Origin: Promethearchaeia archaeon
Lineage (GTDB): Archaea; Asgardarchaeota; Lokiarchaeia; Sigyniarchaeales; SOKP01
Assembly (NCBI GenBank): GCA_029856155.1
Contig: JAHQWL010000061.1
Location: forward strand, 1-30,815
Reading direction: 5' to 3'
DNA length: 30,815 bases
Shown here: positions 1,266-27,809 of the stretch, one piece after another
Numbering within the stretch: position 1 is the stretch's first letter
How the letters are laid out: each line of letters starts with the position of its first letter
Notes under the pieces: model-generated
What the model was told of the DNA's origin: nothing
The model's database searches: none
Seen by the model: the letters and a program-made list of their open reading frames with translations, nothing else
Position numbers and translations under genes: made by a program

Positions 1266-4200
1266 ATGAATTTAAGAAAAAAATATATAAGAACAGAATT
1301 TGCTATAATTTTCTTCACTTTTTTCATTTTAACTAGCACTAGTGTTCTAAACAATAATACTGTTAATATCATAGTTAATAATGGTGGTAGGAACTTGCAT
1401 CAAGCTACATTTTGGGATCTAACAGAAACACCAATCTATATTTTAGGAAATGGAGAATGGGCAGCAACCGCATTAGCAGAACCATGGTGTAGAGGCTCAG
1501 GTACATGGAATGATCCTTATATTATTGAGAATGTAACAATAAATGGATTAAATTCCAGCAGCTGTATAGAAATCTCTAGTAGTAATGTATTTTTCATTAT
1601 AAGGAATTGTACTGTTTTTAACTCTAGTGACACCACTAATGCGGCGGGAATAAGCTTAAATTTTGTAAATAATGGGATCTTAAGCCAGAATAATTGCTCT
1701 TTTAACAATAGGAATGGCATTACACTTCTAAGTAGTGATAATAACACAATCATTCAAAATACTGCAAATAATAATGGTGATTTTGGAATTAGGCTTTATC
1801 TAGCAGATAACAATTTTATTATCGATAATGAGATTAAATATAATTTGAATAATGGAATTACTCTTGATTCAAGTGATGATAATGTGATTTCCCAAAATAA
1901 AGCATTTAATAATGTAAATGGCATAAGACTTTCTTTTAGCAATTATAATAATATGACATTAAACCACTGCGATAAAAACAGTCAAGCTGGAATAAATCTT
2001 TATTCATATTCCATGTTTAATAATATATTTGAGAATTCTCTAGCTAATAACACTGAAAATGGAGTTTACTTATTTTTTAATAGTAATTTGAATTCAATTT
2101 TCGAGAATAATATTACTGAGAACAAAGACAATGGTATATATCTCTATAATAGTGGCAATACTACAATTACGAAAAATTTGATTATGAATAATAAAGATGG
2201 GATGCATTTTATCAATTCTAATTATACTGAAATAAGAGAAAACAAAATAATCAATAATTCTGATCACGGAGTGCAGTGTACAGGATGTTATAATAATGAA
2301 TTTAGTGAAAATTTTCTAGATGGTAATTTAAGGGGAATCGAAATAAGTATTGGTCAGGGTAACGAGTTATCAGGAAATTCTTTTATCAATATAATTGAAG
2401 ATGCTATAAGAATATCAAATTCCGCTCATAACAACTTTATGAAAGAAAATAATTTTGAAAATTGCGATACAGGTATAGCTATTGTTAACAGCAATATGAA
2501 TGAGGTCATTGAAAATATCTTAATTAATAATATGGATGGAATATGGTTAGCCGTTGCAGATAATAGTAAGATTTTTAGTAATACAATTTACAATAATAGT
2601 CAGGATGGACTTTATCTCGGTGATGATTGCGATAGTAATATTATTTCTGATAATCTTATCCAAAATAATAGTGGCAACGGAATAATTATATTTCAGCCAA
2701 AGTGTGATGAGAACCTATTTTATAAGAATTATCTGATAAATAATAGCATAAATGCATTTGATGGAGGCACGAATAACTACTGGAATAATTCCCTCATAGG
2801 AAATTACTGGGATAATTATACTGGATCTGATTCTAATAATGACGGAATAGGAGATACTGCCCATGATGTTCTCCCTCTTGGAGGAAGTCAAGATTTTCTT
2901 CCTATATTCGGTGATCCATTACATGACGGGAGTCCAATTATCATTGATGATTCAGGAGTAGAAGGAATTACTTGGCAGCAAGCCTCAACAAAAGCATGGT
3001 GTAATGGCTCTGGTACTCTTAATCATCCTTACATTATAGAAGATCTTATAATAAACGGTGAAAATTCAACTTCTTGTATTGAAATCAAAAATTCAAACGC
3101 ATATTTCATTATTGAAGATTGTCTTTTCATAAATGCTAGTGACGCCTATTCTGAAGCAGGTATAAAGTTAAGCCATGTTAATTATGGGCAGATTCTAAGA
3201 AATAACTGTTCACTCAACAATTTTGCCGGTATAGTCTTAGACTATAGTAACAATAATACAATTATTGGAAATACTGCCTTTAATAATTTAATATATGGTA
3301 TTGTTGTAATACGTTCAGAGAATAATACTTTAATAGAGAATACAGCAAAATTTAATGAAGAAGGGATTGAGTTATGGGTTAGTCCATTTAATGAAATCAA
3401 GAAAAACATTGGAAATAATAATACTAATTATGGTATAAGCTTAGGAGCTAGTAGCAATGAAAATAAAATTATAAATAATGTCTTTGAAAGTAATAATCTT
3501 GGAATTGCAATACAATCGAGTCATAAAATTAACATTTTCTCCAATAATGTATCATTTAATTCTGGTTCTGGAATATTTTTACGCGATGGTTCCAATAGCA
3601 CGATTCTCGATAATATCTTAAGAAAAAGTGGAACTGGTATTTACATGGATTCTTTCAGTAATAACAACAATATTACTAATAATCTTGTCGTAGAAAATGC
3701 TGACGGTATTAAAATTTTAGACGGTATTGGAAATTCAATCATTACAAATTTGATCTTATCTCAGGGTTCTGCGGGGATAAGATTATATAACGCAAATGAA
3801 ACTGATATAATGCATTCAAGCATTGATGGGAATTATTATGGTATCTTTTGCTCATCAACTTCCCATAATACAACAATTAGAAACAATACTATTACAAATA
3901 ATGCCCGGGGAATCTTTATTGATGTAGAAAGTTCATTCAATGATATATTTAATAACACTTTTGAATCTAATACTTTATATAATGCTAGAGATGATGGATC
4001 TAACAATAATTGGAATAGCACTTCAATGGGTAATTATTGGGATGATTACACCGGTTCTGATTTGAATGATGATGGATTTGGAGATGATCCCTATCATATT
4101 ACTGGTTCAGCAGGAAGTCAAGATTATTTGCCTATTTGGGATGATGGGGAAAGTATCATGCCTAATATAACAATAATTTCGCCAAAAAACAATGAAATAT

Positions 4201-4841
4201 TTGAGGAAGATGCCCCCTCATTTAACGTTATTATCCGAGATCCTAATTTGGATATGATGTGGTATACCCTTGATGGTGGATTGACAAATACTACTTTTTT
4301 TGACAATGGAACTATAGATCAAGGATTATGGGATGATTTTGGAATTGGTGAAATTATTATTAGATTCTATGCCAATGACACCATTGGTAATATTGGATTT
4401 GCAGAAGTGATCATTATTAAAGACATAGAAGCACCAAATATTATAATACATAATCCTACTGATAATCAAGAGTTTGGAGCTACAGCACCACAGTTTAACA
4501 AATCTATTACTGAGCAAAACTTAGATACAATATGGTATACGATTAATGGAACAACGAAATATATTATAACATCAACCTCAGGGACCATTGATCAGGTCGT
4601 TTGGGATTCATTTGAAAATGGAATAATAATAATCACATTCTATGCAAATGATACTCTTGGAAATGTTTCGTCTGAAGAAGTATCAGTAATCAAGGAAGTT
4701 ACACAAGGTCCTACTGGTCCTGATATGGTTTTAATAATAGTAATTGTTTCAATCGTGAGCGGAGTTGGCATTGCATTAGTCATTTTATTTCTAATAATGA
4801 AAAAACGAAAATTATCTGCAGAAGGATTGGATTCACAATAA
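1266..4841 (+). CDS. Large cell-surface glycoprotein: two tandem NosD/CASH right-handed beta-helix modules, two Ig-like domains and a C-terminal TM anchor
   Basis: N-terminal basic and hydrophobic signal/anchor. Module cap WCxGSGTxxxPYIIE occurs twice; many NNxxxNNxxGIxL parallel beta-helix repeats. Each module ends GNYWDxYTGSDxNxDGxGD (NosD-type end with a DxNxDG motif). Two PxIxIxxP...WYT...FYANDTxGN Ig-like repeats, then TM MVLIIVIVSIVSGVGIALVILFLIM followed by KKRK. Abundant NxS/T sequons. Confidence 0.85.
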   Translation: MNLRKKYIRTEFAIIFFTFFILTSTSVLNNNTVNIIVNNGGRNLHQATFWDLTETPIYILGNGEWAATALAEPWCRGSGTWNDPYIIENVTINGLNSSSCIEISSSNVFFIIRNCTVFNSSDTTNAAGISLNFVNNGILSQNNCSFNNRNGITLLSSDNNTIIQNTANNNGDFGIRLYLADNNFIIDNEIKYNLNNGITLDSSDDNVISQNKAFNNVNGIRLSFSNYNNMTLNHCDKNSQAGINLYSYSMFNNIFENSLANNTENGVYLFFNSNLNSIFENNITENKDNGIYLYNSGNTTITKNLIMNNKDGMHFINSNYTEIRENKIINNSDHGVQCTGCYNNEFSENFLDGNLRGIEISIGQGNELSGNSFINIIEDAIRISNSAHNNFMKENNFENCDTGIAIVNSNMNEVIENILINNMDGIWLAVADNSKIFSNTIYNNSQDGLYLGDDCDSNIISDNLIQNNSGNGIIIFQPKCDENLFYKNYLINNSINAFDGGTNNYWNNSLIGNYWDNYTGSDSNNDGIGDTAHDVLPLGGSQDFLPIFGDPLHDGSPIIIDDSGVEGITWQQASTKAWCNGSGTLNHPYIIEDLIINGENSTSCIEIKNSNAYFIIEDCLFINASDAYSEAGIKLSHVNYGQILRNNCSLNNFAGIVLDYSNNNTIIGNTAFNNLIYGIVVIRSENNTLIENTAKFNEEGIELWVSPFNEIKKNIGNNNTNYGISLGASSNENKIINNVFESNNLGIAIQSSHKINIFSNNVSFNSGSGIFLRDGSNSTILDNILRKSGTGIYMDSFSNNNNITNNLVVENADGIKILDGIGNSIITNLILSQGSAGIRLYNANETDIMHSSIDGNYYGIFCSSTSHNTTIRNNTITNNARGIFIDVESSFNDIFNNTFESNTLYNARDDGSNNNWNSTSMGNYWDDYTGSDLNDDGFGDDPYHITGSAGSQDYLPIWDDGESIMPNITIISPKNNEIFEEDAPSFNVIIRDPNLDMMWYTLDGGLTNTTFFDNGTIDQGLWDDFGIGEIIIRFYANDTIGNIGFAEVIIIKDIEAPNIIIHNPTDNQEFGATAPQFNKSITEQNLDTIWYTINGTTKYIITSTSGTIDQVVWDSFENGIIIITFYANDTLGNVSSEEVSVIKEVTQGPTGPDMVLIIVIVSIVSGVGIALVILFLIMKKRKLSAEGLDSQ

Positions 4842-7290: not shown

Positions 7291-7872
7291 TTTAGGAATA
7301 TCAGTGACTCTTATACCACCCGCTATTGCTAATCGTGGATGGTCTCGTAGCCGTGCTACGGATTCTAACTCAAACAAAGGCGCTCGTCGTGAAGCTTGGC
7401 GATCTAAGCCGCTATGCACGAGTGCATAATGTAATCTTATGTTTTTATATTTAAGGTCTATAAGGCCGGCTAATGTGATAGCAGGTGATCGAGACATGAT
7501 AAAATCTGCCATAATTTCTACGTGAAAATCATATGCGGCACGTAAAGCCTCTTTAATGGTAACATCATAAGCATCTGCTAGTATTGTGACAATATCAGCT
7601 TTCGCTTTAGCTGCCATTTGTACTTCAAGGTATCCAGCATCTGCAGTCTTTAAATCCGCACATACCAGTTTGTCTGGGTGAGCATCCTTTAACACTTGGA
7701 TAGCACGTATTCCTTCGGATTTTATTAAAGGAGTTCCAACTTCCAAAATATCTACAAATGGAGCCACTTGTTCCGATATCACCAATGCATCATCCAGTTT
7801 TTCAAAATCCAAGGCTACTTGTAATCGCGGATTTTGTTTTTCTTTCTTACTTTTCTTTGACACATCCATCAC
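7177..7872 (-). CDS. hxlA: 3-hexulose-6-phosphate synthase (OMP decarboxylase/HUMPS family)
   Basis: LQVALD, ILEVGTPLI, DLKTADAG (DxKxxD), HSGLDRQ, AIAGGI and IIIVGGGIT motifs. Confidence 0.8.
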   Translation of the reverse strand: MMDVSKKSKKEKQNPRLQVALDFEKLDDALVISEQVAPFVDILEVGTPLIKSEGIRAIQVLKDAHPDKLVCADLKTADAGYLEVQMAAKAKADIVTILADAYDVTIKEALRAAYDFHVEIMADFIMSRSPAITLAGLIDLKYKNIRLHYALVHSGLDRQASRRAPLFELESVARLRDHPRLAIAGGIRVTDIPKLSAFPLDIIIVGGGITHAENPRNAAEKIEKAIYKCFR

Positions 7873-8008
7873 TACTTATAATCACTATACACTTATTTTT
7901 TATATTTCAAATTAAAAAACATTATCCTAAATATTGATTAGTATTTGACGAAAGATTTTGAATTTATCCGCTTTTATAAGATCAGTATTAATATTCAACA
8001 TTATACCG

Positions 8009-9004
8009 TTATCTCTTCAAAGCAGAATTGATAGCGTAGCCTAAAATTCTACCTTTTATCGAAAAAAATTCATTGTAAAGTTTAAAAAGTTCTGAATCAA
8101 ACGAGGGATTGGCATTTAAATCAAGTAAGAAAAAATTAGAATCATCATCGAGCAACCAGTCAAATCTTACATAATCCATGCAATTGGTAATTATTTTTAA
8201 ATTACATAGTTTATCCTCGATTTTTTTTAATAAACTTGAATTTTGAACATCAGGTCTCTTATAGAACTCATCAACAGAAAGTGGGCTGTAATTTTTTTGA
8301 TCGAAGTCATAGAAATTTTTTGGAGTTACTTGTATCGTAAATGCTTTAACATCATTACACACATCATTCCCGATAATTAATGTTGTATATTCCCGTGCAT
8401 TTTTAACAAACTCTTGAATAAGGATAACCTCTTTTTGGCCTAAAATCTTCTCTATGTATTCAATTCTATCTATAACTTCTTTAAAGGAATTACAAATACT
8501 ATTTTCATCAAGGAGTAAAGAATCTCCCGAAATACCCATTTTCACAATAACTGGGAATCTTAATGTATTAACCTTTTCTTCTAAAAATCTTAAATCAATC
8601 CCCTGATAATACATCACTGTATTTGGATAATTGATTCCCAAATAATCGAATACATATAACATGAGATCTTTTCGTTCGAAAAATTCAACATTATTAGCTT
8701 GTCGACCTGTGTATTTTATCCCCAAAAAATTGAATATTTCAATAAAAAACGCATTTTTAGAGAAATCATTTTCATATCCATTATCTGCTAAATTAACGAC
8801 TAAGTCGATTTGGTCCTTATTCTGGAAAAAGTAATCGATGCTTTTGTTGTGACCATCTAACATTAAAATATTATATCTATCCTTTAACAAATCTAATTCT
8901 TTTTGAAAATCCTTAAAATCAGTATAGCCATCTATAGGTAATTTAAAATCATAAATTTTAACATCATTTATCTTGTCATAAAAAAGAACTACAATATTTT
9001 TCAT
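8009..9004 (-). CDS. ATP-grasp ligase, D-Ala-D-Ala-ligase-like
   Basis: DLVVNL, LGIKYTG, FPVIVK, LIQEFV..REYT, YDFDQK, DYVRFDW and LLDLNANP follow the Ddl-family motif order. Confidence 0.75.
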   Translation of the reverse strand: MKNIVVLFYDKINDVKIYDFKLPIDGYTDFKDFQKELDLLKDRYNILMLDGHNKSIDYFFQNKDQIDLVVNLADNGYENDFSKNAFFIEIFNFLGIKYTGRQANNVEFFERKDLMLYVFDYLGINYPNTVMYYQGIDLRFLEEKVNTLRFPVIVKMGISGDSLLLDENSICNSFKEVIDRIEYIEKILGQKEVILIQEFVKNAREYTTLIIGNDVCNDVKAFTIQVTPKNFYDFDQKNYSPLSVDEFYKRPDVQNSSLLKKIEDKLCNLKIITNCMDYVRFDWLLDDDSNFFLLDLNANPSFDSELFKLYNEFFSIKGRILGYAINSALKR

Positions 9005-9255
9005 TTATTTAATTCAACTTACTTCTCTAAGCAAAATAAATTTTAACTTTATTTATTCTTAAATTCTTATTTGATTTAAAATATCTTTTAATCATAGACT
9101 GATAAGAACTATATTAAATTCAACTAATTTTAAAGCATGAATAATAAGCGTCGTTTCAGACCCTTATTTAAAGGTTAAGAGAAAAATCTCCAAAATTTTA
9201 AATATCTTTAGTCTTATAATTGGATTAAATTTAATAATTAAGTAGTTGAGATTTT

Positions 9256-9588
9256 ATGGGAAAAGAAAAGGAAAAGGATAAGGACAAAAAAGATAAAGAC
9301 AAAAAGGATAAAGATAAAAAGGACAAGGATAAAGATAAGGATAAAGACAAGGATAAAAAAGATAAAATATCTGTTGACCAGGAATGGAAATTATCTATAA
9401 GTAAGGATCTTGATTCTCTAACGCATGCCTACGATAAAATTACTAATAAATTTAGAGATATTGATAATTATATATTAAAGGAGGCTATATCAAAAGAAGA
9501 TTTCATGGAAAAAGTACTTAAATACGTAGAAGATTTACCTGATGTGTCCAAACAAATATTTATAGCGTTCTTAGATTCAATAAAATAA
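9256..9588 (+). CDS. Small protein with an N-terminal Lys/Asp mixed-charge repeat and a helical C-terminal domain
   Basis: MGKEKEKDKDKKDKDKKDKDKKDKDKDKDKDKDKKDK followed by ~70 aa of amphipathic helices; T-run immediately downstream. Confidence 0.75.
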   Translation: MGKEKEKDKDKKDKDKKDKDKKDKDKDKDKDKDKKDKISVDQEWKLSISKDLDSLTHAYDKITNKFRDIDNYILKEAISKEDFMEKVLKYVEDLPDVSKQIFIAFLDSIK

Positions 9589-9613
9589 TTTTTTTTTTAA
9601 CTTTTTTTTATTT
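9588..9613 (+). terminator. Poly-T terminator candidate
   Basis: Two long T-runs directly after the TAA at 9588. Confidence 0.45.
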
Positions 9614-9707
9614 AAACAATCTTCCGAAAGATGAGTAGAATTATTTTTCTATATTCAATACATATTAAAGCTTAAATAAAACGTTGCCCCTTTAATTATA
9701 TAGAAAA

Positions 9708-10133
9708 ATGAGTCCAACAATAGAATTAAATGATGTTGTTAAAAAGAAGTTAGACGAATTTAAAGAAAAGTGTGGAGCAGAAACATATTCTGATGCGATT
9801 AATATCAATCTAATACAACTAAAATTACTTGAGGATAATCAAAGAATATTATCTGAAATTCGAGATACTTTGAAGAATTTAACTCTTATACCTCAACAAG
9901 ATACCCAAATGATTGATGCTCTGAGAAATTATGTAAATTCTGAGGATAAGGGAGATATATTGGGAATGTTTGTCAGACTTGTGGATTCAAAAGCCAATTT
10001 ACACAAACTTTTGGTATCACAAGGCAAAATTAGGGAAGCTGAAAACGTTCATTCCGAATGGAAAGCATTAGTCGAAGTTGCGAATTTACTTGGGATCGAA
10101 TCTGAACTTGAAATGATAAAAAAAGAAGAATAG
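9708..10133 (+). CDS. Hypothetical protein with an N-terminal ribbon-helix-helix (archaeal antitoxin/VapB-like) domain and a helical C-terminus
   Basis: TIELNDVVKKKLDEFKEKCGAETYSDAI matches the TIxL...KxxLxxLK...TYSDxI pattern of small archaeal RHH proteins. Confidence 0.6.
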   Translation: MSPTIELNDVVKKKLDEFKEKCGAETYSDAININLIQLKLLEDNQRILSEIRDTLKNLTLIPQQDTQMIDALRNYVNSEDKGDILGMFVRLVDSKANLHKLLVSQGKIREAENVHSEWKALVEVANLLGIESELEMIKKEE

Positions 10134-10367
10134 CTCTTTTCTTAAATTCAAGAATTTAAAATTTAGGTTTAGAGATTTCTTTCCTTAAACGATGAACTCT
10201 AATGCTCAGTAGCACTATGAATTTTAAGTTTAAAGAAAGAATGTAAATCCATGAGATAGTTGTTTCTAGATTAGATAATTCCTGTATTTTAAAGCAAAAA
10301 TCCTTTATTAATAAAAGTATTTTCCAATTTAACGAAAAATATTATAAAAGAAAATTAGTGGTCTCTG

Positions 10368-10658
10368 ATAACGAAGCCGATTGTACATGTTTTATTAAAA
10401 ACTGAGGAAGATACATATTGTGCTAAGTGTTGTAAAACGAGAAACATTATTGAGCGAATTTTTACAGATATACCAGAATTTAAACAAAAAATTGATATAA
10501 GTTTTGAAGATATTGACTCTGCTGATACTATAAAAAAATATGGGATGGTAGTTCCCCCAGCAATTATCATTGAAGAACGTATTTTATTTGAAGGTCATGT
10601 TCCGATTATGAAAAAATTAGCTCGAGATTTATTTGAATTGATTGAGCCAACTAAATAA
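10368..10658 (+). CDS. Small thioredoxin-fold redox protein (MTH895/Thioredoxin_3-like)
   Basis: Missed by the ORF track. Frame after TAG 10356: LITKPIVHVLLKTEEDTYCAKCCKTRNIIERI...IKKYGMVVPPAIIIEERILFEGHVP...EPTK*. CxxC plus YGxxxxPAIII..EGxVP is the family signature. Start is ATA 10368 or CTG 10365; no canonical start precedes the CxxC. Confidence 0.8.
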   Translation: MTKPIVHVLLKTEEDTYCAKCCKTRNIIERIFTDIPEFKQKIDISFEDIDSADTIKKYGMVVPPAIIIEERILFEGHVPIMKKLARDLFELIEPTK

Positions 10659-10746
10659 TCTTAATACTTTTACCTAAAAAAGTAAGTTAAAATAATAAAG
10701 GATCTAAAAAATAATATATAATCACCTAAATTGATTGATTATACTT

Positions 10747-11244
10747 TTACATTTTTATTTCACTTAAAATATTATCAAGATAATAGATATTTTCTTGTTC
10801 AACTTCTTCCAATAAAGCATTCGCTAATGAATATTTAAAGGCCCATACTTCCACGTTTCTTTCCAGTTCTTTTAATTTCTTAATAACTGGAACAAAATCA
10901 CCATCTCCTGATACCAACACCGCTGTATCATATGCATCCTCGTAAGCATATGAGATGATATCGATTGCTATTTTAATGTCAATCTTCTTTTCAATAGCAC
11001 CACTTGATGCAATCTTATTAAAGCTTGCTTTAATCACGTAACCACTTCGATTACTTAACTCCTCATACCACTTCTTCTTCTCTGGATTCATAGGATATAC
11101 GACACCTTCATATAAGAAAATATTCTTTAAATCTCGACCACGAGCTATGAAATTTTTTAGTGCTTCATAATCTACCTTGATGTTGTATTTCCTAAATCCC
11201 TTGAAAATATTACTATTATCTACAAAAACTATAATTCGTTCCAA
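10747..11244 (-). CDS. NYN domain (LabA/DUF88, PIN-fold) ribonuclease
   Basis: VFVDNSN, EKKIDIKIAID and LVSGDGDFVP acidic catalytic motifs. Confidence 0.9.
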   Translation of the reverse strand: MERIIVFVDNSNIFKGFRKYNIKVDYEALKNFIARGRDLKNIFLYEGVVYPMNPEKKKWYEELSNRSGYVIKASFNKIASSGAIEKKIDIKIAIDIISYAYEDAYDTAVLVSGDGDFVPVIKKLKELERNVEVWAFKYSLANALLEEVEQENIYYLDNILSEIKM

Positions 11245-11362
11245 TTCTAAACTCTTTTTGCTCTTACGAAACTAAATTACATATCTATTATTAAAAAAAG
11301 TTCTTTGAAGTAATAATCTTAATTATTACAATATTAAAAAAAAAAAATAAAGTTTGTATAAT

Positions 11363-12070
11363 TTATTGACTCTTAGAGGAATTTTTACTTACAGAAATAG
11401 GTTTCTCAAACATAAGGTTATATATCATATTTGCCCTTCGCTTGATTTGTTCTCTTTTAAGAATCTTAGCTCTATTAGAATTCTGGTATCTCTTCAAAGC
11501 AATTTTCTGCCATTTTTTCTTCCAAGAAGGAAAGCCTGTTTTAACAAAACGTTCACGATTTGGAAAATCTCGACATACCCAATTGAATAAGATAAAATAC
11601 CTTTCTATACCAGATTCTTTTGTAAGATTATGAGATTTAACTCCGAGTCTTCTAAGGTGTTGAATAAATCTACCTTCCACGGCATCTTGGAGCTCCCCTT
11701 CGATAATTGCAGGTTCATAGTAAATATCATTCTCATTAAAATACTCTCTAACAAGATCGAAACAATTACCCCTACATAGAAGAATTCTATCTCCCTTACC
11801 GTGGTTAAGCTCTCTAAGAGCTTTGATTACAATCTTTACTATATGTTTATTAGGGCGATCATCATCCTTATTGTCTTCATTATAGAGACCAACGGGGACT
11901 GATTTAAATATAATCTTTCCGTTTTCTACATCTCGAAAACCAATGAAAGCATTTCCGACAAGATCTCCTGTCCCAGCGTCATCAATTTCTATTGTTCTTC
12001 CCTTCCACTCGCTAGGATTATTAGTGGATTGGCACGACTCATTGTCGTTTTTGTCTTTTTTTGTCTTCAT
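11363..12070 (-). CDS. Uncharacterised protein with an RNase HII-like N-terminal motif
   Basis: IEIDDAGTGDLVG resembles the RNase HII GIDEAGRGxxxG motif; basic C-terminal helix. Confidence 0.6.
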   Translation of the reverse strand: MKTKKDKNDNESCQSTNNPSEWKGRTIEIDDAGTGDLVGNAFIGFRDVENGKIIFKSVPVGLYNEDNKDDDRPNKHIVKIVIKALRELNHGKGDRILLCRGNCFDLVREYFNENDIYYEPAIIEGELQDAVEGRFIQHLRRLGVKSHNLTKESGIERYFILFNWVCRDFPNRERFVKTGFPSWKKKWQKIALKRYQNSNRAKILKREQIKRRANMIYNLMFEKPISVSKNSSKSQ

Positions 12071-14570: not shown

Positions 14571-15422
14571 TCAGTTGTTTGTCCTTTTACTTAATTTTCG
14601 TTCAATATTCATAGTGTCTAGGTCAACCACTACACAATTTAAAAAATTTTCGTGCTGGTGAGATTGCCCTGGTTGAATACATATCGTTTTACCTATTTGA
14701 GAATGCCATTTACCTGAAATATCGGGAGACTCGTGAATATGACCATGAAGTGAGAGTCTTGGTTGATTTTCTTTAAAAAAAATATATTCTGCTTTCGAAC
14801 CTACCTTTCGATCGTCATGAGTTACATCAAGATCGATATTAGCCGGGGGATTATGGAAAATGTAGATTGAATTATCCATATCGGAAGGATTTACGAGATT
14901 TCTAAGCTCATCTTCAATTGTGGGGAGTGTATCCACATACGAGGCCCAATCTTCAATTTTTTTGAATCCATTTGGAGTGGAGAGATATTGCCTGCCAATT
15001 TGTTTTGGAAGCTCAAAATCTTTGGTATCTTTCCGTGCCCTATCTTTTAGACCAAACGGGAGGTCTGAAACCCAGTTCATTCCTATAAATTCATATTTGC
15101 TTTCTTCAATCTGGAATTTGGTTTGAGCAATATTAACTACATAAGAATATTTTTCGCATGTTTTTTGAAATAAATCATCAAATATTCCCAAATCGTCATT
15201 TCCTAATAAACCTAAATAATATATCCCCATTGATTCAAATCTCGAAAAATACTCATCAAGAAATCCAGTTATAAATCTATCTTGATGCAATAAATTCCCT
15301 CTAAATATAAGCATATCTCCTCCATTTATCACGGCATCAACTTTTAATGAACTTGCCATTTCGAAGATTTTATTATGTTTCCATTCAATTCCGTGGATAT
15401 CAGTAACATATAATAATTTCAT
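14571..15422 (-). CDS. Calcineurin-like metallophosphoesterase (Icc-related)
   Basis: TDIHG, GGD, GNDD, FHNPP and HGHIHE motifs. Confidence 0.9.
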   Translation of the reverse strand: MKLLYVTDIHGIEWKHNKIFEMASSLKVDAVINGGDMLIFRGNLLHQDRFITGFLDEYFSRFESMGIYYLGLLGNDDLGIFDDLFQKTCEKYSYVVNIAQTKFQIEESKYEFIGMNWVSDLPFGLKDRARKDTKDFELPKQIGRQYLSTPNGFKKIEDWASYVDTLPTIEDELRNLVNPSDMDNSIYIFHNPPANIDLDVTHDDRKVGSKAEYIFFKENQPRLSLHGHIHESPDISGKWHSQIGKTICIQPGQSHQHENFLNCVVVDLDTMNIERKLSKRTNN

Positions 15423-17986: not shown

Positions 17987-20900
17987 TTATAATGGCCTTG
18001 AAATTTCCTTGAAAAGCTTTTTGATAAATCCTTCAAAATTATCCTTAGTATATTTTACATTGAGTAAATGCCAGAGAACGCGAGGTATATTTTCTTCTTT
18101 TTCATATACAGGAATAATTTTTAAGATCTGTTTTTTCCTCATTTGAAAAGCTGCTTGCCATTCATCATTCACAGCTTGTGATTGTAAAGAGTTTTCTGAA
18201 CAATATAAAATAAACACATTGCATTTTCTGAGTGCTTTTTCCATATATTCCACTATATTTTCTCCACTATCTCTTTCCCAAAATAGAACATCGTCTATCT
18301 CTTCATATTTTTTTAAATGTTCCGCGATTTTTGGAATTTCGAAATAATCTGAATCCTGCGTAGAATAACTTAGAAATATTTTATAATTCCCTTTTTTTAC
18401 TTTCTTAGGTGAAATTAGCGGGAAATTAATCTTATCTTGGGAATCGGGTATTAAGGATCTTCCTTCCCATCTCTCATATGATTGTAATAGATCATTGATT
18501 TTTTCATCAATAGGTTTCAATTTTTCCATTTTTTCCATTAAATCGGTGCTTGTAATTTCTTCTCCAAATGCTTCTGCTGTTTTACGACGCTGTTCTTCTA
18601 ATTTTCGTTCAGCTTCTTGCTTCTCAAGTAATTCAGCCAAATCTTTGCGTATAGAGACACTATCATCATAACATTTATCAAATAAAAGTCCTTCTTGATA
18701 GAGGCTTAATTTATATCCTAAAGAATCTAAGGCATTATAGAATAATGAAATTCTTTTTTTCAGACTATTCTTGAAGAATTCGTCAACTTGAGAGGGTGGT
18801 ATTTTTGGTAATCGTTTCTCAACGTTTCTAAATTGTTGATATATGAATTGTTTTGAAAATCTTTCTAAATGTGGAATTGAATTTAATTGCTCCTCTTCCT
18901 CCTCTCTTTTAGTTTCTTCTTCTTCAATTTTCATGGAAAGAACTCTTTCTTTTTCCCTTTCTCTTTTCTTTTTCGCTGTAAACCTTGCTGCTTTTTTAAC
19001 AACTATAATTGAAACTGCTAAAAATGATACTATAATACTTAAGATTATAATTAACCTAATAATCGGACCGAGATCTAAAGGTTTCTTAACTGCTTCAACC
19101 GTTGCATTCCAATATACTATCATATTTCCTTCGCAAAATTCTTGTATTATATTTTCTCCGTTTTCCTTAATAAAATCTTTAATAATGAGATTATTATGAC
19201 TCTTGTATAATTTTACGCCAATATTATTGTTATAAATAGAATTATTTATAAGATAATTGTTACTACTCAAATTTAATTTAATCCCGTTCTCACAATTAAA
19301 TATTTTATTTTTAGAAATTGTATTATTGTTGCTATTATCAGAAGAATTATCTAAAAATGGAGGAGTCTCATGAAAGGCTAATATATATTTGGATATAAAA
19401 AACTCAGAACCCAATGAGATAAAATGATTATCAATATGATCATGAGCAGTCCAAGGGGGTGTATTATGATCAAGTCTCTCTATAAAATAATGGTTATTTC
19501 CTGATGAAAAATGTTGATCATTCCAAGTAATTAGATAGTTATCACCATGTGCCATGTGAACTTCACTAGCCCATTCTTGAATATTATCTCGAAATATTAA
19601 AATATCATTCCAATCGGCAATTCTATATGCCGGTCCAAACTCATCCTTTACGGCATCATCCAAATCCTCAGTATTTGTATGGAGATAATTAGTTACTCGA
19701 AATAACTCAGAAATTGAATAAGATCCTATTAAATTAATTCCATTCTTACAATTGGAAATAATATTATTCGAGATATTGTTATAGTTGCTATAATGGGTAT
19801 AAATTCCAGTATAAGTGCAATTCTTTATAAAATTATAATCTATATGTGTATCATCAGTCTCATATAAAAATATTCCATGATTATTGGTTGACTTGTTGTT
19901 GGTAAGTTTATTATTAGATATTGTTAAATAATCACAATATTCAGAGCTAACAGAACGATCTTTAGAGTCCACTACTTTATTTTCAATTACATAATTATAA
20001 TTACTCTTATATAATTTTACTCCGATATCACAGGTATAAATAGAATTATTTAAAATAGAGTTGTTTTTACCAAATTCCAAATTTACCCCATTCTCACAAT
20101 TAGATATCTTATTATGTGAAATATTATTAAAGCTGCTATAATATGAATAAATTCCATTAGAAACACAATTATTTATTGTATTATTTTCTATTATGGTTTT
20201 ATTGCTATAAAATAAAGTAATTCCATCATATAGATAATTAAAAATCCTATTTCCTAAAATATTAGTATTGTAACTATACCAACTATTTATTGCTGAATCA
20301 ATAGAATCGATTGCAAAATTGTTTTTAATATCTGTATTATTACAAGAATTAATAATAATAAAATAATTACTACCAGATGCATTATTTTGAGAAATAATGT
20401 TATAATTACAGTAATTTAATGAAATAGAATTGAATATATCGATATTTTGAGTAATGTTAACAAAGTTACAACTATATATATACATACTGTAGGATCCTCC
20501 ACTTATATTATTTAGCGAGATAGTGATAAAAGAACTATTGAACAAATGGATCCCGCGTGATATACCGGTTTGTTGTATTATATTTTCTTGAATTGCAAAT
20601 GAACTACTTGATCTAACATTAATACCTCTCGATTCACCCCAAGTAGGACCATTCAATGATATGGAATTATTTTTTATTTTTCCATTCGTAATATTATTTA
20701 AAAAAATTCCACCCTCTAAACTTGAAGAACCATTATTAGCTAACGTGCAGTTTTTTATCTCAAAATATTCTTGAGAATTCTCAATTGTAATGCAAAAGTC
20801 TGTCCCACCGGCATCAATTTCTAAATTTTGAATTATATAAGGATCAGAACTAGTTCCTGAACCTATACAAATTCCTGCAGCCTTTACATCTGTCCAGTTA

Positions 20901-21100
20901 TTGTTTATGTAAATTTTTGGTGAAATTTTAGAAATTTTAGGTTTAGTTTTTTCAAAACTTTTTATTTGGTCAAAATTTAATACATTATTACTAAATCTGT
21001 GGACATTTCCAATATAATTAAAGCAGATAATAATAAAAGTTAAAATAAAAATTTTCAAAATTAAGAATTTCCTATTTCTTTCTTTTCTTGTTAAAATCAT
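17987..21100 (-). CDS. Receptor-like membrane protein: NosD/beta-helix ectodomain, TM, coiled coil and C-terminal TIR domain
   Basis: N-terminal signal/anchor; GSGTSSDPYIIQ cap and parallel beta-helix repeats; TM IIRLIIILSIIVSFLAVSIIVV (aa ~680-701) followed by KK..KKKR; E/K/R-rich stalk. TIR: KIFLSYS..D...LFWERDSGENIVEYMEKALRKCNVFILYCSENSLQSQAVNDEWQAA...IIPV....IP. Confidence 0.9.
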   Translation of the reverse strand: MILTRKERNRKFLILKIFILTFIIICFNYIGNVHRFSNNVLNFDQIKSFEKTKPKISKISPKIYINNNWTDVKAAGICIGSGTSSDPYIIQNLEIDAGGTDFCITIENSQEYFEIKNCTLANNGSSSLEGGIFLNNITNGKIKNNSISLNGPTWGESRGINVRSSSSFAIQENIIQQTGISRGIHLFNSSFITISLNNISGGSYSMYIYSCNFVNITQNIDIFNSISLNYCNYNIISQNNASGSNYFIIINSCNNTDIKNNFAIDSIDSAINSWYSYNTNILGNRIFNYLYDGITLFYSNKTIIENNTINNCVSNGIYSYYSSFNNISHNKISNCENGVNLEFGKNNSILNNSIYTCDIGVKLYKSNYNYVIENKVVDSKDRSVSSEYCDYLTISNNKLTNNKSTNNHGIFLYETDDTHIDYNFIKNCTYTGIYTHYSNYNNISNNIISNCKNGINLIGSYSISELFRVTNYLHTNTEDLDDAVKDEFGPAYRIADWNDILIFRDNIQEWASEVHMAHGDNYLITWNDQHFSSGNNHYFIERLDHNTPPWTAHDHIDNHFISLGSEFFISKYILAFHETPPFLDNSSDNSNNNTISKNKIFNCENGIKLNLSSNNYLINNSIYNNNIGVKLYKSHNNLIIKDFIKENGENIIQEFCEGNMIVYWNATVEAVKKPLDLGPIIRLIIILSIIVSFLAVSIIVVKKAARFTAKKKREREKERVLSMKIEEEETKREEEEEQLNSIPHLERFSKQFIYQQFRNVEKRLPKIPPSQVDEFFKNSLKKRISLFYNALDSLGYKLSLYQEGLLFDKCYDDSVSIRKDLAELLEKQEAERKLEEQRRKTAEAFGEEITSTDLMEKMEKLKPIDEKINDLLQSYERWEGRSLIPDSQDKINFPLISPKKVKKGNYKIFLSYSTQDSDYFEIPKIAEHLKKYEEIDDVLFWERDSGENIVEYMEKALRKCNVFILYCSENSLQSQAVNDEWQAAFQMRKKQILKIIPVYEKEENIPRVLWHLLNVKYTKDNFEGFIKKLFKEISRPL

Positions 21101-21261: not shown

Positions 21262-21990
21262 CTATTTTTGTGTCTTCTTTAAATTTTTCAATTTTTTCAA
21301 TGTCCTACGAACGTCTTTATCCTGTGGATTAAGTTTTTTTAGTTGTTTATAACAATAAATTGCGTTTTGATATCCTCCTAACTTTTGATAAAGTACCCCC
21401 ATATCTTTCCAAACTTCCCTATACCCCGAATTGATTTGCACTGCTTTCTCATATGATTCTATAGCCTTTCTATAATTCTCCATCTTCTCATACACATTTC
21501 CCATACATTTCCACGCTTTAGAATGATTCGGATGAAGTTCAATTGCTTTTCTAAAATTTTCAATAGCCTTATTATAAACATTTGACTCTTTAAAGCAAAT
21601 ACCCATACCAATATATGCTGAAGAATAGTTCGGTTTAATTTTAAGTGCTTCCTGGAATTTTTTTATAGCTTCATTGTATTTTCCCTCTTCCTGCAATTTC
21701 TGACCTTCTGAATTGCAAGCTTTTGAAGCCCAATCCTCATAGGGGATATGACCCGTAGTTGATGGTCTATATGTGGTATAGCTGGGTTTATATGATGGTG
21801 TATAACTTGGAGTTGATGGATAAGTTGGCTGAATCTTGGGTTGTTGGGATTGAAGGATCATATCTGCCTGCTTCTCAAACATTTTATTATATTTCATGGG
21901 AGATGATGAATATTCTAATCCTCCTAATCCTCCATGTGCTTTTTTAAAATCATTCTTAAGTTGATCTATTATCCTTTTCTTCTCACTCAA
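21262..21990 (-). CDS. TPR-repeat protein with a Tyr/Pro/Ser/Thr-rich linker
   Basis: About four TPRs (GKYNEAIKKFQEALKIKP, AYIGMG..AIENFRKAIELHP, AWKCMG..AIESYEKAVQIN, VWKDMG..AIYCYKQLKKLNP); linker QPTYPSTPSYTPSYKPSYTTYRPST; TTG start. Confidence 0.88.
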   Translation of the reverse strand: MSEKKRIIDQLKNDFKKAHGGLGGLEYSSSPMKYNKMFEKQADMILQSQQPKIQPTYPSTPSYTPSYKPSYTTYRPSTTGHIPYEDWASKACNSEGQKLQEEGKYNEAIKKFQEALKIKPNYSSAYIGMGICFKESNVYNKAIENFRKAIELHPNHSKAWKCMGNVYEKMENYRKAIESYEKAVQINSGYREVWKDMGVLYQKLGGYQNAIYCYKQLKKLNPQDKDVRRTLKKLKNLKKTQK

Positions 21991-25907: not shown

Positions 25908-27809
25908 TTAACTCCAAGTATATATACTTAGATTTTTAATTATTGAGTCGTAGGCCTTAAATGCATAATCATTTTTATTTGACCCAAAAACATTAATTGT
26001 ATATGAATACGAATTGTGAAACGAAACTCTACTTGATTGAAAAGCTAAGATAACATAAATAGTGGAATTTGTCACAGATACAAAAGAATTTCCCATTGTA
26101 TATATATAAAATATAAAATCAATTTGAATTATTTCTAAAATAGAATCCTCTAAAAGGTAAACCTCCCAAATTCCATAACATTTATCTACATTTATTTTTG
26201 CCGAGTCTCTAGCTACAATATGATTTACAGATGCATTTTTGAGAATTAGCTCTGAATCATTAATACAAAAAATTTCACGCACATAATAATCTTTTATAGT
26301 TAATCTAGCAGTTCCGTTTATCTCTATCAATCTCAAAACTCTCTGTGAAAAAATAATATTTACGAGAGTTGTAAAGTTCACATAACTCCCAGTACCAGTA
26401 AAGCCTCCCGAACCCAAATTTAATGAACCATCATATATAATTACGCCTTCATTTAAATACCGAATAGTACAGTTTTCAACATATGCTACATCTCTCCCAC
26501 CCAAAGATAAATCATTTATAAATGAATTAGCAATGTATATATTATCTCTAGCCAAGTTTGTGAAAAGGTAATAAGTCGAAATGCTATATATATCACAATT
26601 ATTAATCGTTATTGAATTTGTAGTATCGCAGTCTAAATCAGAGATTTTAGTATTTATCATAATTAGTTCACTATTATCAAAGCATCTTAATTTTGCGTGA
26701 GAAAAGTCATTATTCTCTAATGTTAAAAAAGAAGAATCCCTCAGTGTTCCGCAAAATACTGAGAAATGTGTAAATGTTAAGGACGAATCAGTAAGGTTAG
26801 CTATGGTTGCTCTGGAATTGTCATGAAGATAAACCGAACAAGAAAAATTGTTCATATTTACAACCGCAGAACTATTTGTTGCAACTGATACTAATAAAGG
26901 AGTGGTCACAACCGAATTGATTAATCGTGTGTTGTTAATATAATTTGTACCTGTAATTTTACCTCCATCTATATTTGTGGTTCCTGAGTATGCTACAATT
27001 CCATAATAATAATGACTTGTAACAGTACATTGATCCAAAATAACTCGTGTCATATCATAAACATCCAAATTCTCGAGAATAGATCCGTAAAAACTCAAAT
27101 TTGCATACCCTTTTACAGTTACACTTTGTAAAGTAGAGTTTTCTATAGTTCCAGTAATCTTTATGAGAGGTGAAGTTGTTTCAATAAAAATTGACTCAAT
27201 CCCAGGTAATTTACAATCCTTTATGAATAAGTCACATCCTTCCGTTATTTCAATATGATGAATAGTAGAATTATTTATTATTGAAAGCGAAGTTTGGTAA
27301 TAGAACACTCCTGGAACTATGTAGGGTGGACTTACTGCTATATAATTTATAGAAGAATTCTTGATTATGGCTGAGCTATAATCAAAAAGCCTAAGTTCTT
27401 CAAAAGTACAGTTTTCAACTATTAGAGAACTCTCATCATGTAAATAAATGATAAGTCCCGTATAATTGATGCTTTTAAGAGATAATTTCACATCATTATG
27501 CAAAGAAATTGATAATAGTCGAGTAGCATTATTAATTGTACAATTTATACAATCAGTTGAGTTAACAATAGGATAACCATTAACTTTTCCACTAGTGATA
27601 TTTAAAAAATTACTAATTACAACATCTCCGTATGTAAACTTTACAGCGTATTCAAGAAAATCTATAGATGAATTCTCCACATAAGTATTAGATTGTGGAC
27701 CTGGAATGCTTGGTGATGGTCTAAAGAATAATATATAAATGAAACTAAAAGATATTAATACAATGGGGATTATCAAAATTGTAGCAAATATTTTATAACC
27801 TTTTTTCAT
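25908..27809 (-). CDS. N-terminally anchored beta-solenoid surface protein
   Basis: MKK plus a TM helix, Pro linker, and repeats of the type LxDxSxxxIxNS/C; internal duplication (GIVAYSGTTNIDGGKITG..YINNTRL vs GVIIYDGSLNLGSGGFTG..YVNFTTL); many NxS/T sequons. Confidence 0.75.
   Translation of the reverse strand: MKKGYKIFATILIIPIVLISFSFIYILFFRPSPSIPGPQSNTYVENSSIDFLEYAVKFTYGDVVISNFLNITSGKVNGYPIVNSTDCINCTINNATRLLSISLHNDVKLSLKSINYTGLIIYLHDESSLIVENCTFEELRLFDYSSAIIKNSSINYIAVSPPYIVPGVFYYQTSLSIINNSTIHHIEITEGCDLFIKDCKLPGIESIFIETTSPLIKITGTIENSTLQSVTVKGYANLSFYGSILENLDVYDMTRVILDQCTVTSHYYYGIVAYSGTTNIDGGKITGTNYINNTRLINSVVTTPLLVSVATNSSAVVNMNNFSCSVYLHDNSRATIANLTDSSLTFTHFSVFCGTLRDSSFLTLENNDFSHAKLRCFDNSELIMINTKISDLDCDTTNSITINNCDIYSISTYYLFTNLARDNIYIANSFINDLSLGGRDVAYVENCTIRYLNEGVIIYDGSLNLGSGGFTGTGSYVNFTTLVNIIFSQRVLRLIEINGTARLTIKDYYVREIFCINDSELILKNASVNHIVARDSAKINVDKCYGIWEVYLLEDSILEIIQIDFIFYIYTMGNSFVSVTNSTIYVILAFQSSRVSFHNSYSYTINVFGSNKNDYAFKAYDSIIKNLSIYTWS

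Follow-up and report, generated by a model that had tools for sequence, protein, structure and literature searches.

A Lokiarchaeia-centred family of membrane proteins with a C-terminal TIR domain and a predicted receptor-like layout

To our knowledge, the known prokaryotic TIR proteins act inside the cell on cytoplasmic cues, and the placing of a TIR domain behind a sensor outside the cell counts as an invention of animals. Whether archaea possess such an arrangement is the question raised by one gene of a 30,815-nucleotide stretch of DNA from a Promethearchaeia archaeon (GenBank assembly GCA_029856155.1, contig JAHQWL010000061.1), referred to below as the window. The gene lies on the minus strand and codes for a protein named here P0001. 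An earlier note, made from the DNA letters alone, had assigned to it the layout of a Toll-like receptor (TLR), in a probable Asgard archaeon. The protein is predicted from its sequence to be of type I or receptor-like layout, with an extracellular domain, one internal transmembrane (TM) helix and a TIR domain on the cytoplasmic side in vivo. It does not stand alone: its genome has at least four intact membrane paralogs, P0001 included, and the protein belongs to a large, Lokiarchaeia-centred family in which swappable outer sensor domains are carried on one common TIR.

The reading frame starts with ATG and runs through 1037 codons with 0 internal stops. The genome is metagenome-assembled (4.1 Mb in 104 contigs, 97% complete, 5.7% estimated contamination) and another family copy, on contig C82, is a fragment. 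Both facts could speak for an assembly chimera, or a decaying pseudogene, in which a surface-protein gene was fused to a TIR gene. This explanation is hardly credible, as the frame is intact, all parts of the gene are under purifying selection, and full-length orthologs (P0002, 71% identity; P0003, 59%) exist in independent assemblies. Collinear 1034-residue orthologs are found in GCA_048939845.1 and Logan SRR26538807 with the same neighbours. P0001 is therefore not an assembly chimera for practical purposes, and the ectodomain-TIR junction, on whose reality the earlier proposal depended, is supported by this collinearity. The Asgard origin is borne out too, the homologs being labelled Promethearchaeota, Lokiarchaeota, Hermodarchaeota or Helarchaeota.

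Predicted architecture of P0001

A Kyte-Doolittle scan of P0001 detected exactly two hydrophobic segments, at residues 12-30 and 683-701. The net flank charges are +4 before and 0 after the first segment, the +4 being that of the N-terminal flank MILTRKERNRK, and +1 before and +6 after the second. Because positive flanks are expected inside, the N-terminus is placed in the cytoplasm, residues ~31-682 outside and the C-terminal 336 residues, TIR included, inside. No clear A-x-A signal-peptidase site was seen near the N-terminus. The ectodomain would be outside whether the first segment is a signal that is cleaved off or stays as an anchor. The signal or anchor, the single internal helix and its positive-inside flank had all been read from the letters beforehand and were recovered here, the helix being now delimited to nucleotides 18998-19054 instead of ~18998-19063, with the TIR and the ectodomain predicted on opposite sides of the membrane. 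The distribution of N-x-S/T sequons (23 outside, 0 inside) was rejected as evidence for topology, the numbers being as composition predicts (17.8 +/- 3.5 and 1.2 +/- 1.0).

Most of the first 660 residues are covered by the Pfam models NosD (9e-46, 156 bits against a cut-off of 23.6) and Beta_helix (1e-35), and the NCBIfam para_beta_helix repeat is found in eight stretches. These were the only Pfam models matching the ectodomain, where no leucine-rich repeat (LRR) or Ig-like domain was detected; the proposal of a beta-helix in place of LRRs is in agreement with this result. P0001 is not a NosD ortholog, because it scores 69.4 bits with NosD_copper_fam (TIGR04247), far below the 300-bit cut-off; what it has in common with that family is no more than the generic parallel beta-helix repeat. 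The ectodomain contains 17% Asn, so that the Asn-rich solenoid of the earlier note stands, except for its continuity: the beta-helix is interrupted at residues 463-583 by a non-beta-helix insert of ~120 residues. The turns that follow the insert (residues 584-675) are 73-82% identical among the orthologs. A C-E-G-N motif resembling their C-x-G-N cap precedes the TM helix in other family members.

The insert is kept in the two orthologs, and BLAST matched it only in P0001-P0003. No other copy was found in the rest of the genome or in any other protein collected, no Pfam family matched it, and no credible relative was found in the PDB or in the Atlas, where a feature search gave scores of 0.86 or less. 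Vps38, retrieved as a PDB-profile relative (E 9e-4) through a helical region, was judged spurious.

Selection was measured on the three orthologous genes (P0001-P0003) as the ratio of non-synonymous to synonymous substitution rates (dN/dS, Nei-Gojobori method). Every region is under purifying selection, with values of 0.11-0.20 for the TIR, 0.19-0.28 for the juxtamembrane stalk, 0.40-0.52 for the N-terminal beta-helix and 0.58-0.68 for the insert. A comparison of the window with GCA_048939845.1 gave 69-74% identity for the flanking genes, 51-55% for the N-terminal part of the ectodomain and the insert, and 78% for the TIR. Relative to the local genomic background, evolution is thus faster on the outside of P0001 and slower on the inside, which is the pattern expected of a receptor. 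The insert, present in one orthologous group only, has the highest dN/dS of any part of P0001. It is the obvious candidate for a ligand site that would determine specificity.

The cytoplasmic part (residues 702-1037) was modelled with AlphaFold2 from a 66-sequence alignment, with a mean predicted local distance difference test score (pLDDT) of 86.5. The region between the membrane and the TIR, which had been described as a charged stalk of ~200 residues, is indeed present, but the model gives a folded region of six helices (residues 702-900, pLDDT mostly 75-97) and not a simple linker. Its first helix is 38 residues long and continuous with the TM helix; the linker ahead of the TIR has a pLDDT below 50. 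No Pfam family matched this juxtamembrane domain.

The TIR itself is modelled at a pLDDT above 90 as five strands alternating with helices. TIR_2 (PF13676) matches residues 908-1019 with an E-value of 2.8e-16 (60.5 bits against a 28-bit cut-off; 65.4 bits in a whole-genome scan). The animal and plant model PF01582 reaches 22.9 bits for a cut-off of 21.3, far below TIR_2. The Pfam model ThsB_TIR stays under its cut-off (17.5 against 21.2 bits) and PADLOC gave a weak ThsB-like match (E 6.4e-4, 17.3 bits). A Foldseek search of the model against the PDB returned 23 matches at E<=1e-3, and all those listed are TIR domains. The best are SPARTA TIR-APAZ, Hydra TRR-2 (target TM-score 0.78), MyD88, SARM1, AbTir (0.75) and TLR2. 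When 61 family TIRs were made into a profile, it matched two PDB sequences, 9m0n (a TIR-TPR protein, E 3e-7) and 9mud (Cat1, E 1e-4); no paper on 9m0n, the top match, was found in the literature.

In the alignment with Cat1, the family consensus 'lkSeavkdEw' lies over 'LKSDWCWDEL', so that Ser974 corresponds to Cat1 S68 and Glu980 to Cat1 E74, as counted along the chain. In Cat1, both residues are among those lining the NADase (nicotinamide adenine dinucleotide-cleaving) site, and the E74A and S68A mutants lose activity in vivo (PMC12162218). A Glu at the start of helix alpha-C, between strand beta-C and strand beta-D, is critical for the NADase activity of TIR domains (PMC7075850); Glu980 sits between the model strands 261-266 and 293-298. 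Among 66 family TIRs, Ser974 is present in all and Glu980 in 63, the exceptions being one Gln and two Val. Judged from these residues, the TIR of P0001 possesses an intact NADase-type active-site pair and would be catalytic. The earlier claims of an intact C-terminal TIR and of a Glu980 (codon GAA at 18161-18163) at the catalytic position were upheld at the level of sequence and model, and the motifs IFLSYS (from residue 908) and SQAVNDEW (from residue 974) were found where they had been placed.

One TIR behind many putative sensor modules

Six TIR_2 matches were found in the whole genome of P0001. The paralog on contig C81 is a protein of 1262 residues made of Peripla_BP_6/ANF_receptor, beta-helix, TM helix and TIR. 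Contig C79 carries a tandem pair (7656-11626) with a 799-residue protein (PKD, beta-helix, TM helix and TIR) and a 512-residue protein (an ectodomain matching no family, TM helix and TIR). The 799-residue member (9227-11626) is intact and has Gln at the catalytic position (DVKDQW), and the adjacent 512-residue member keeps Glu. The pair comes after a 1581-residue FG-GAP protein and an 860-residue PKD protein on the same strand. Contig C4 (33382-34635) codes for a soluble protein of 417 residues with ankyrin repeats, TIR_2 and an unassigned C-terminal half; its TIR belongs to a clade different from that of the receptor family.

Searched at full length in public databases, P0001 retrieved the two orthologs and ~17 longer proteins with beta-helix and TIR. 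The TIR alone retrieved 967 clusters (at 50% identity) at E<=1e-3, 484 at <=1e-10 and 125 at <=1e-30, and in the matched proteins it is almost always located at the extreme C-terminus. Eighty-two database proteins of 570-1815 residues with the family TIR were typed by hydropathy. In about 58 of them, a large ectodomain is combined with a single strong TM helix that precedes the TIR by 110-210 residues, and about 22 have an N-terminal multi-TM module followed by a long cytoplasmic part. The remaining two (P0181 and P0313) are soluble LRR, PCI and TIR proteins with no TM helix, which rules out true TLR look-alikes (LRR-TM-TIR) among the family members examined. The ectodomains are in majority of the NosD/beta-helix type. 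Others are type 1 periplasmic-binding/ANF_receptor domains with FN3, SBP_bac_5, FG-GAP and other propellers, and TSP3 repeats. Additionally, several short proteins of ~260-600 residues (P0123-P0126, P0230, P0233 and P0266) consist of two to four tandem copies of the family TIR and may be pre-assembled TIR oligomers.

A survey across Asgard genomes had been called for in the earlier note. The TIR clade of P0001 was detected at E<=1e-10 in 93 of 400 Asgard genomes, with up to nine or more copies in each. They cluster in the family (78 of 134), the order and the class to which the window belongs, and a single match falls outside the class. A scan for a signature pattern, in one genome for each of 185,579 prokaryote species, gave 51 confirmed loci, all 51 in Asgard metagenome-assembled genomes or bins labelled 'uncultured archaeon'; as the scan relies on one peptide pattern, it shows the home of the close clade and leaves room for distant bacterial relatives. 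The family is apparently undescribed and apparently Asgard-only. Full-text literature searches yielded no description of Asgard ectodomain-TM-TIR proteins, in line with the statement that no characterised example was known. A survey of Asgard defence systems mentions TIR only inside lists of system names (PMC11291487), and a TIR survey counting 118 archaeal TIRs reports single-pass TIR receptors for animals only (PMC7075850).

The presence of the same TIR behind ligand-binding domains (Peripla_BP_6/ANF_receptor, SBP_bac_5) and the faster evolution of the ectodomain are indirect arguments that P0001 may be a receptor, so that this proposal of the earlier note gains partial support. The protein could instead be mainly structural or adhesive, acting at the envelope or in contacts between cells or with a partner, with its TIR devoted to local regulation or anchoring. 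NosD/beta-helix surface proteins are indeed abundant in Asgard genomes, with or without TIR, and the C79 paralogs adjoin FG-GAP and PKD surface proteins. Nevertheless, the cytoplasmic TIR is the most conserved and most constrained part of P0001, and the TIR clade is linked to a SLOG gene (see below). Moreover, one TIR is found joined with ectodomains of unrelated kinds, with multi-TM modules at the N-terminus and with LRR modules in soluble proteins, which is the pattern of a shared output domain. A chiefly structural role is accordingly held to be very improbable.

The resemblance to animal receptors extends to several features. Like Toll/TLRs and Hydra TRR-2 (PDB 4w8g), P0001 has a solenoid ectodomain, one TM helix and a C-terminal cytoplasmic TIR, and, as with TLRs, many genes make up its family, the ectodomains varying and the TIR being conserved; the TIR model is close to TRR-2, MyD88 and TLR2. 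In contrast to TLRs, its solenoid is a right-handed beta-helix with an insert and not an LRR, a helical domain of ~200 residues separates the TM helix from the TIR, and the LRR-bearing members of the family are soluble. Its TIR, of the TIR_2 type, has retained the catalytic Glu, a residue of which most TLR TIRs make no use. The likeness appears to be one of topology, not descent, and ~20% sequence identity gives no evidence of a common origin of the architecture.

This resemblance raises the possibility of a TLR-like scaffold, in which the TIR would recruit soluble TIR adaptors, such as the ankyrin-TIR and LRR-TIR proteins that the genome has, and catalysis would be dispensable. The TIR fold of P0001 is equally close to the non-enzymatic TIRs of Hydra TRR-2, MyD88 and TLR2, and a soluble ankyrin-TIR protein is present in the genome. 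The Gln-bearing paralog on C79 is intact beside an active-looking one, which indicates that non-catalytic members of the family are kept. On the other hand, the near invariance of Glu980 and Ser974 indicates selection on catalysis, and TIR_2 far outscores the animal-type PF01582. No MyD88-like death-domain adaptor turned up and none of MyD88 type is known for the family, no search aimed at adaptors having been made. A pure scaffold is improbable in our opinion.

A candidate SLOG reader and the proposed relay

Nucleotide signals made by TIR proteins may be read by SLOG domains, as in Thoeris. Exactly one gene combining RelA_SpoT, TPR and LSDAT_prok (SLOG) is found in the genome of P0001 (856 residues, contig C92 82817-85387). 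It lies on another contig than P0001, unlinked to it. The gene is located 100 nt from the end of C92, so that the neighbour upstream of it is missing. The final 20-55 nt of this contig had no second occurrence in the assembly, and hence C92 was not joined to a neighbouring contig. In relatives, a multi-TM TIR gene of 827-840 residues precedes 97%-identical copies of the SLOG gene; its counterpart is unassembled here, and perhaps a repeated TIR sequence broke the assembly at this point.

Orthologs of the SLOG gene were searched for in the same 400 genomes and their coordinates compared with those of the TIR-clade matches. In 12 of the 14 genomes having an ortholog (at least 48% identity), which are relatives, a TIR-clade gene lies at most 2.6 kb away, and within ~700 bp in 10 of them. 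It is usually upstream on the same strand, and convergent once. The two other orthologs are at or near contig starts. In one genome (G216), the RelA-TPR gene is the last of a co-directional array that also comprises an SBP_5 protein and four TIR-ending genes; two of these four code for predicted beta-helix receptors of 995 and 979 residues, of the same type as P0001. In another (G223), the TIR gene ahead of the 97%-identical SLOG copy codes for 827 residues. This recurrent adjacency provides good evidence of a joint function of the TIR clade and the SLOG gene, and the analogy with Thoeris suggests a nucleotide relay in which the SLOG protein reads the TIR product.

P0001 may accordingly be viewed as a single-pass surface receptor whose clustering activates a catalytic TIR making an NAD-derived signal, a reading to which we give an even chance, with the SLOG protein as a plausible reader. 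We infer the following chain, from topology in vivo and ligand binding, through clustering and enzymatic activity, to what the product is and which protein reads it. A ligand or a surface contact would bring the ectodomains together. The TIR tails would assemble next and form a composite active site shared by two TIRs. In Cat1, SARM1 and AbTir, such a two-TIR site forms only in assemblies. The assembled TIRs would cleave NAD+ and give a nucleotide signal, which in this genome would be read by the single RelA/SpoT-TPR-SLOG protein. With many sensors feeding one reader, the whole would amount to a Thoeris-like relay with an extracellular input.

Several observations weigh against this reading. 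Conservation of the Glu alone is no proof that a TIR is active. The ectodomain may be structural or adhesive, because beta-helix surface proteins are common in Asgard archaea without a TIR, an example being encoded at 1266-4841 of the window. The AlphaFold2 model of the insert, built from three sequences, has a pLDDT of 44.7, too poor for a fold search. No defence gene and no SLOG or Macro effector gene is present within the 30.8-kb window, where the neighbourhood is metabolic. Finally, of the 93 Asgard genomes in which the TIR clade occurs, only 23 have a detectable RelA-SLOG homolog, so that the RelA-SLOG reader cannot be the general output of the family.

The 70 genomes of 93 that are left without the gene are what would be expected if the outcome were surface-triggered abortive infection. 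Virus attachment or envelope damage would then cluster the TIRs, and NAD+ depletion would lead to arrest or death with neither messenger nor reader. NAD+ depletion by oligomerised TIR NADases is the best-documented use of prokaryotic TIRs, SPARTA and Cat1 are among the top matches of P0001, and fast ectodomains in a multi-copy family are as in an arms race. Paralogs with the amino-acid- or peptide-type domains Peripla_BP_6 and SBP_5 would nevertheless be odd triggers of suicide. The P0001 locus is outside any defence island, the PADLOC match is weak (E 6e-4) and no link to viruses was found. Abortive infection is thus considered unlikely.

The receptor with an NAD-derived messenger can be placed among known systems. 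As in type I Thoeris, a TIR with a catalytic Glu is presumed to make an NAD-derived signal, and a SLOG protein to read it. There are likewise several TIR genes for one reader gene, comparable to multiple ThsB, and the TIR clade adjoins the SLOG gene in related genomes. ThsB is a soluble protein that senses infection from within the cell, whereas the TIR of P0001 is membrane-tethered behind a predicted extracellular domain and scores under the ThsB cut-offs. The candidate reader differs from ThsA as well, being RelA/SpoT-like with TPR and SLOG and no SIR2, and being located on another contig. With Cat1 (PDB 9mud), SPARTA TIR-APAZ, SARM1 and AbTir, P0001 shares the TIR fold, and with Cat1 also the Ser/Glu pair; activation by assembly is expected. 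Their inputs are cytoplasmic, i.e. cyclic tetra-adenylate (cA4) bound by CARF, a guide-target duplex in Argonaute and the nicotinamide mononucleotide (NMN)/NAD+ ratio, whereas the only plausible input of P0001 is extracellular. Overall, its probable chemistry is closer to that of prokaryotic TIR NADases and Thoeris than to TLRs.

On a wider scale, Lokiarchaeia might possess a dedicated transmembrane signalling system with dozens of receptor types, one TIR, an NAD-derived messenger and SLOG readers, by which nutrients, partner cells and viruses would be sensed. The inputs would be beta-helix, Venus-flytrap-type, SBP, PKD and propeller ectodomains, together with multi-TM modules. Such a system would be a prokaryotic equivalent of Toll-like receptor signalling, in the archaea most closely related to eukaryotes, and would serve to sense the outside world beyond intracellular antiviral defence alone. 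This extension is tentative, and we regard it as somewhat less probable than its contrary. What would be new, as far as sequences can tell, is TIR signalling in Asgard archaea whose input is extracellular and crosses the membrane. On this view, these archaea reached the ectodomain-TM-TIR logic, probably independently, and expanded it to a multigene receptor repertoire. If clustering proves to switch the TIR on, an extracellular event would lead to an NAD-derived messenger by a route that would be the first of its kind in prokaryotes. It would also offer a handle on how Asgard archaea sense partners, nutrients and viruses, with a bearing on syntrophy models of eukaryogenesis, and the origin of TIR-based receptor signalling would become testable in cultured Lokiarchaeia.

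Features and neighbourhood of the locus

The features of P0001 and of the neighbouring genes are collected in Table 1.

Table 1. Features of the P0001 gene and its surroundings (positions in the window)
Feature	Position	Strand	Basis or remark
Whole gene P0001, 1037 aa	17987..21100	-	Predicted type I (or N-anchored) membrane protein; one open frame
N-terminal signal peptide or signal anchor, aa 1-35 (hydrophobic core aa 12-30)	20996..21100	-	Hydropathy peak 2.48
Ectodomain, right-handed parallel beta-helix, N-terminal part, aa 36-462	19715..20995	-	NosD, Beta_helix, para_beta_helix
Non-solenoid insert in beta-helix, aa 463-583	19352..19714	-	P0001-P0003 only
Membrane-proximal beta-helix turns with C-x-G-N cap, aa 584-675	19076..19351	-	Pfam NosD/Beta_helix stretches
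Predicted transmembrane helix, aa 683-701	18998..19054	-	Hydropathy 3.26, sole internal peak
Predicted cytoplasmic juxtamembrane helical domain, aa 702-900 (disordered linker aa 888-901)	18401..18997	-	AlphaFold2
C-terminal TIR domain, aa 901-1037	17990..18400	-	TIR_2, model, Foldseek
Ser974 codon, family-invariant	18179..18181	-	Conservation and Cat1 alignment
Glu980 codon GAA, candidate catalytic residue	18161..18163	-	Conservation and Cat1 alignment
TPR protein, 242 aa, soluble	21262..21990	-	Pfam TPR_1 1e-31; directly upstream, co-directional
258-aa protein, helical N-terminus, Pro-rich linker, about four TM helices	17155..17931	+	Convergent to receptor gene; 69% in GCA_048939845.1
Calcineurin-like Metallophos gene	14571..15422	-	Syntenic with receptor gene, 74% in GCA_048939845.1
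TIR-less cousin, 1191-aa NosD/beta-helix protein	1266..4841	+	N-terminal signal, C-terminal TM aa 1155-1173, 18-aa tail

A TTTTAAAT box is found ~25-30 nt before the ATG of P0001, which may therefore have its own promoter. In each of the three orthologous loci, the TPR gene lies directly upstream in the same orientation, with 71-72% identity. Its product has a very conserved N-terminus of ~50 residues, a linker rich in Pro, Ser and Tyr, and four TPRs. The order of the TPR gene, the receptor gene, the convergent 4-TM gene and Metallophos is kept in GCA_048939845.1, and the pair of TPR and receptor genes also in the second ortholog. Synteny at such an evolutionary distance hints weakly at a partnership between the two. 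Two-gene TIR and TPR defence systems exist in bacteria (bioRxiv 10.1101/2023.05.26.542521). A complex prediction for the cytoplasmic part of P0001 with the TPR protein scored 0.00, which gives no verdict and weighs neither way.

No Pfam family matched the convergent 258-residue protein. Two further open reading frames of the minus strand, at 25908-27809 (633 residues) and 11363-12070 (235 residues), had no Pfam match at E<=1e-4. Phosphoesterases, to which the Metallophos product would belong, are sometimes the signal-terminating partners in nucleotide systems.

The ectodomain of P0001 is of the same kind as that of archaeal NosD-type beta-helix surface proteins, and the TIR-less cousin at 1266-4841 of the window shares with it the signal, the beta-helix and the TM helix. 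The cousin is 26-29% identical to P0001 over the beta-helix. Unlike such proteins, which end in a short tail after the TM helix, P0001 continues into a 336-residue part predicted to be cytoplasmic and to serve in signalling.

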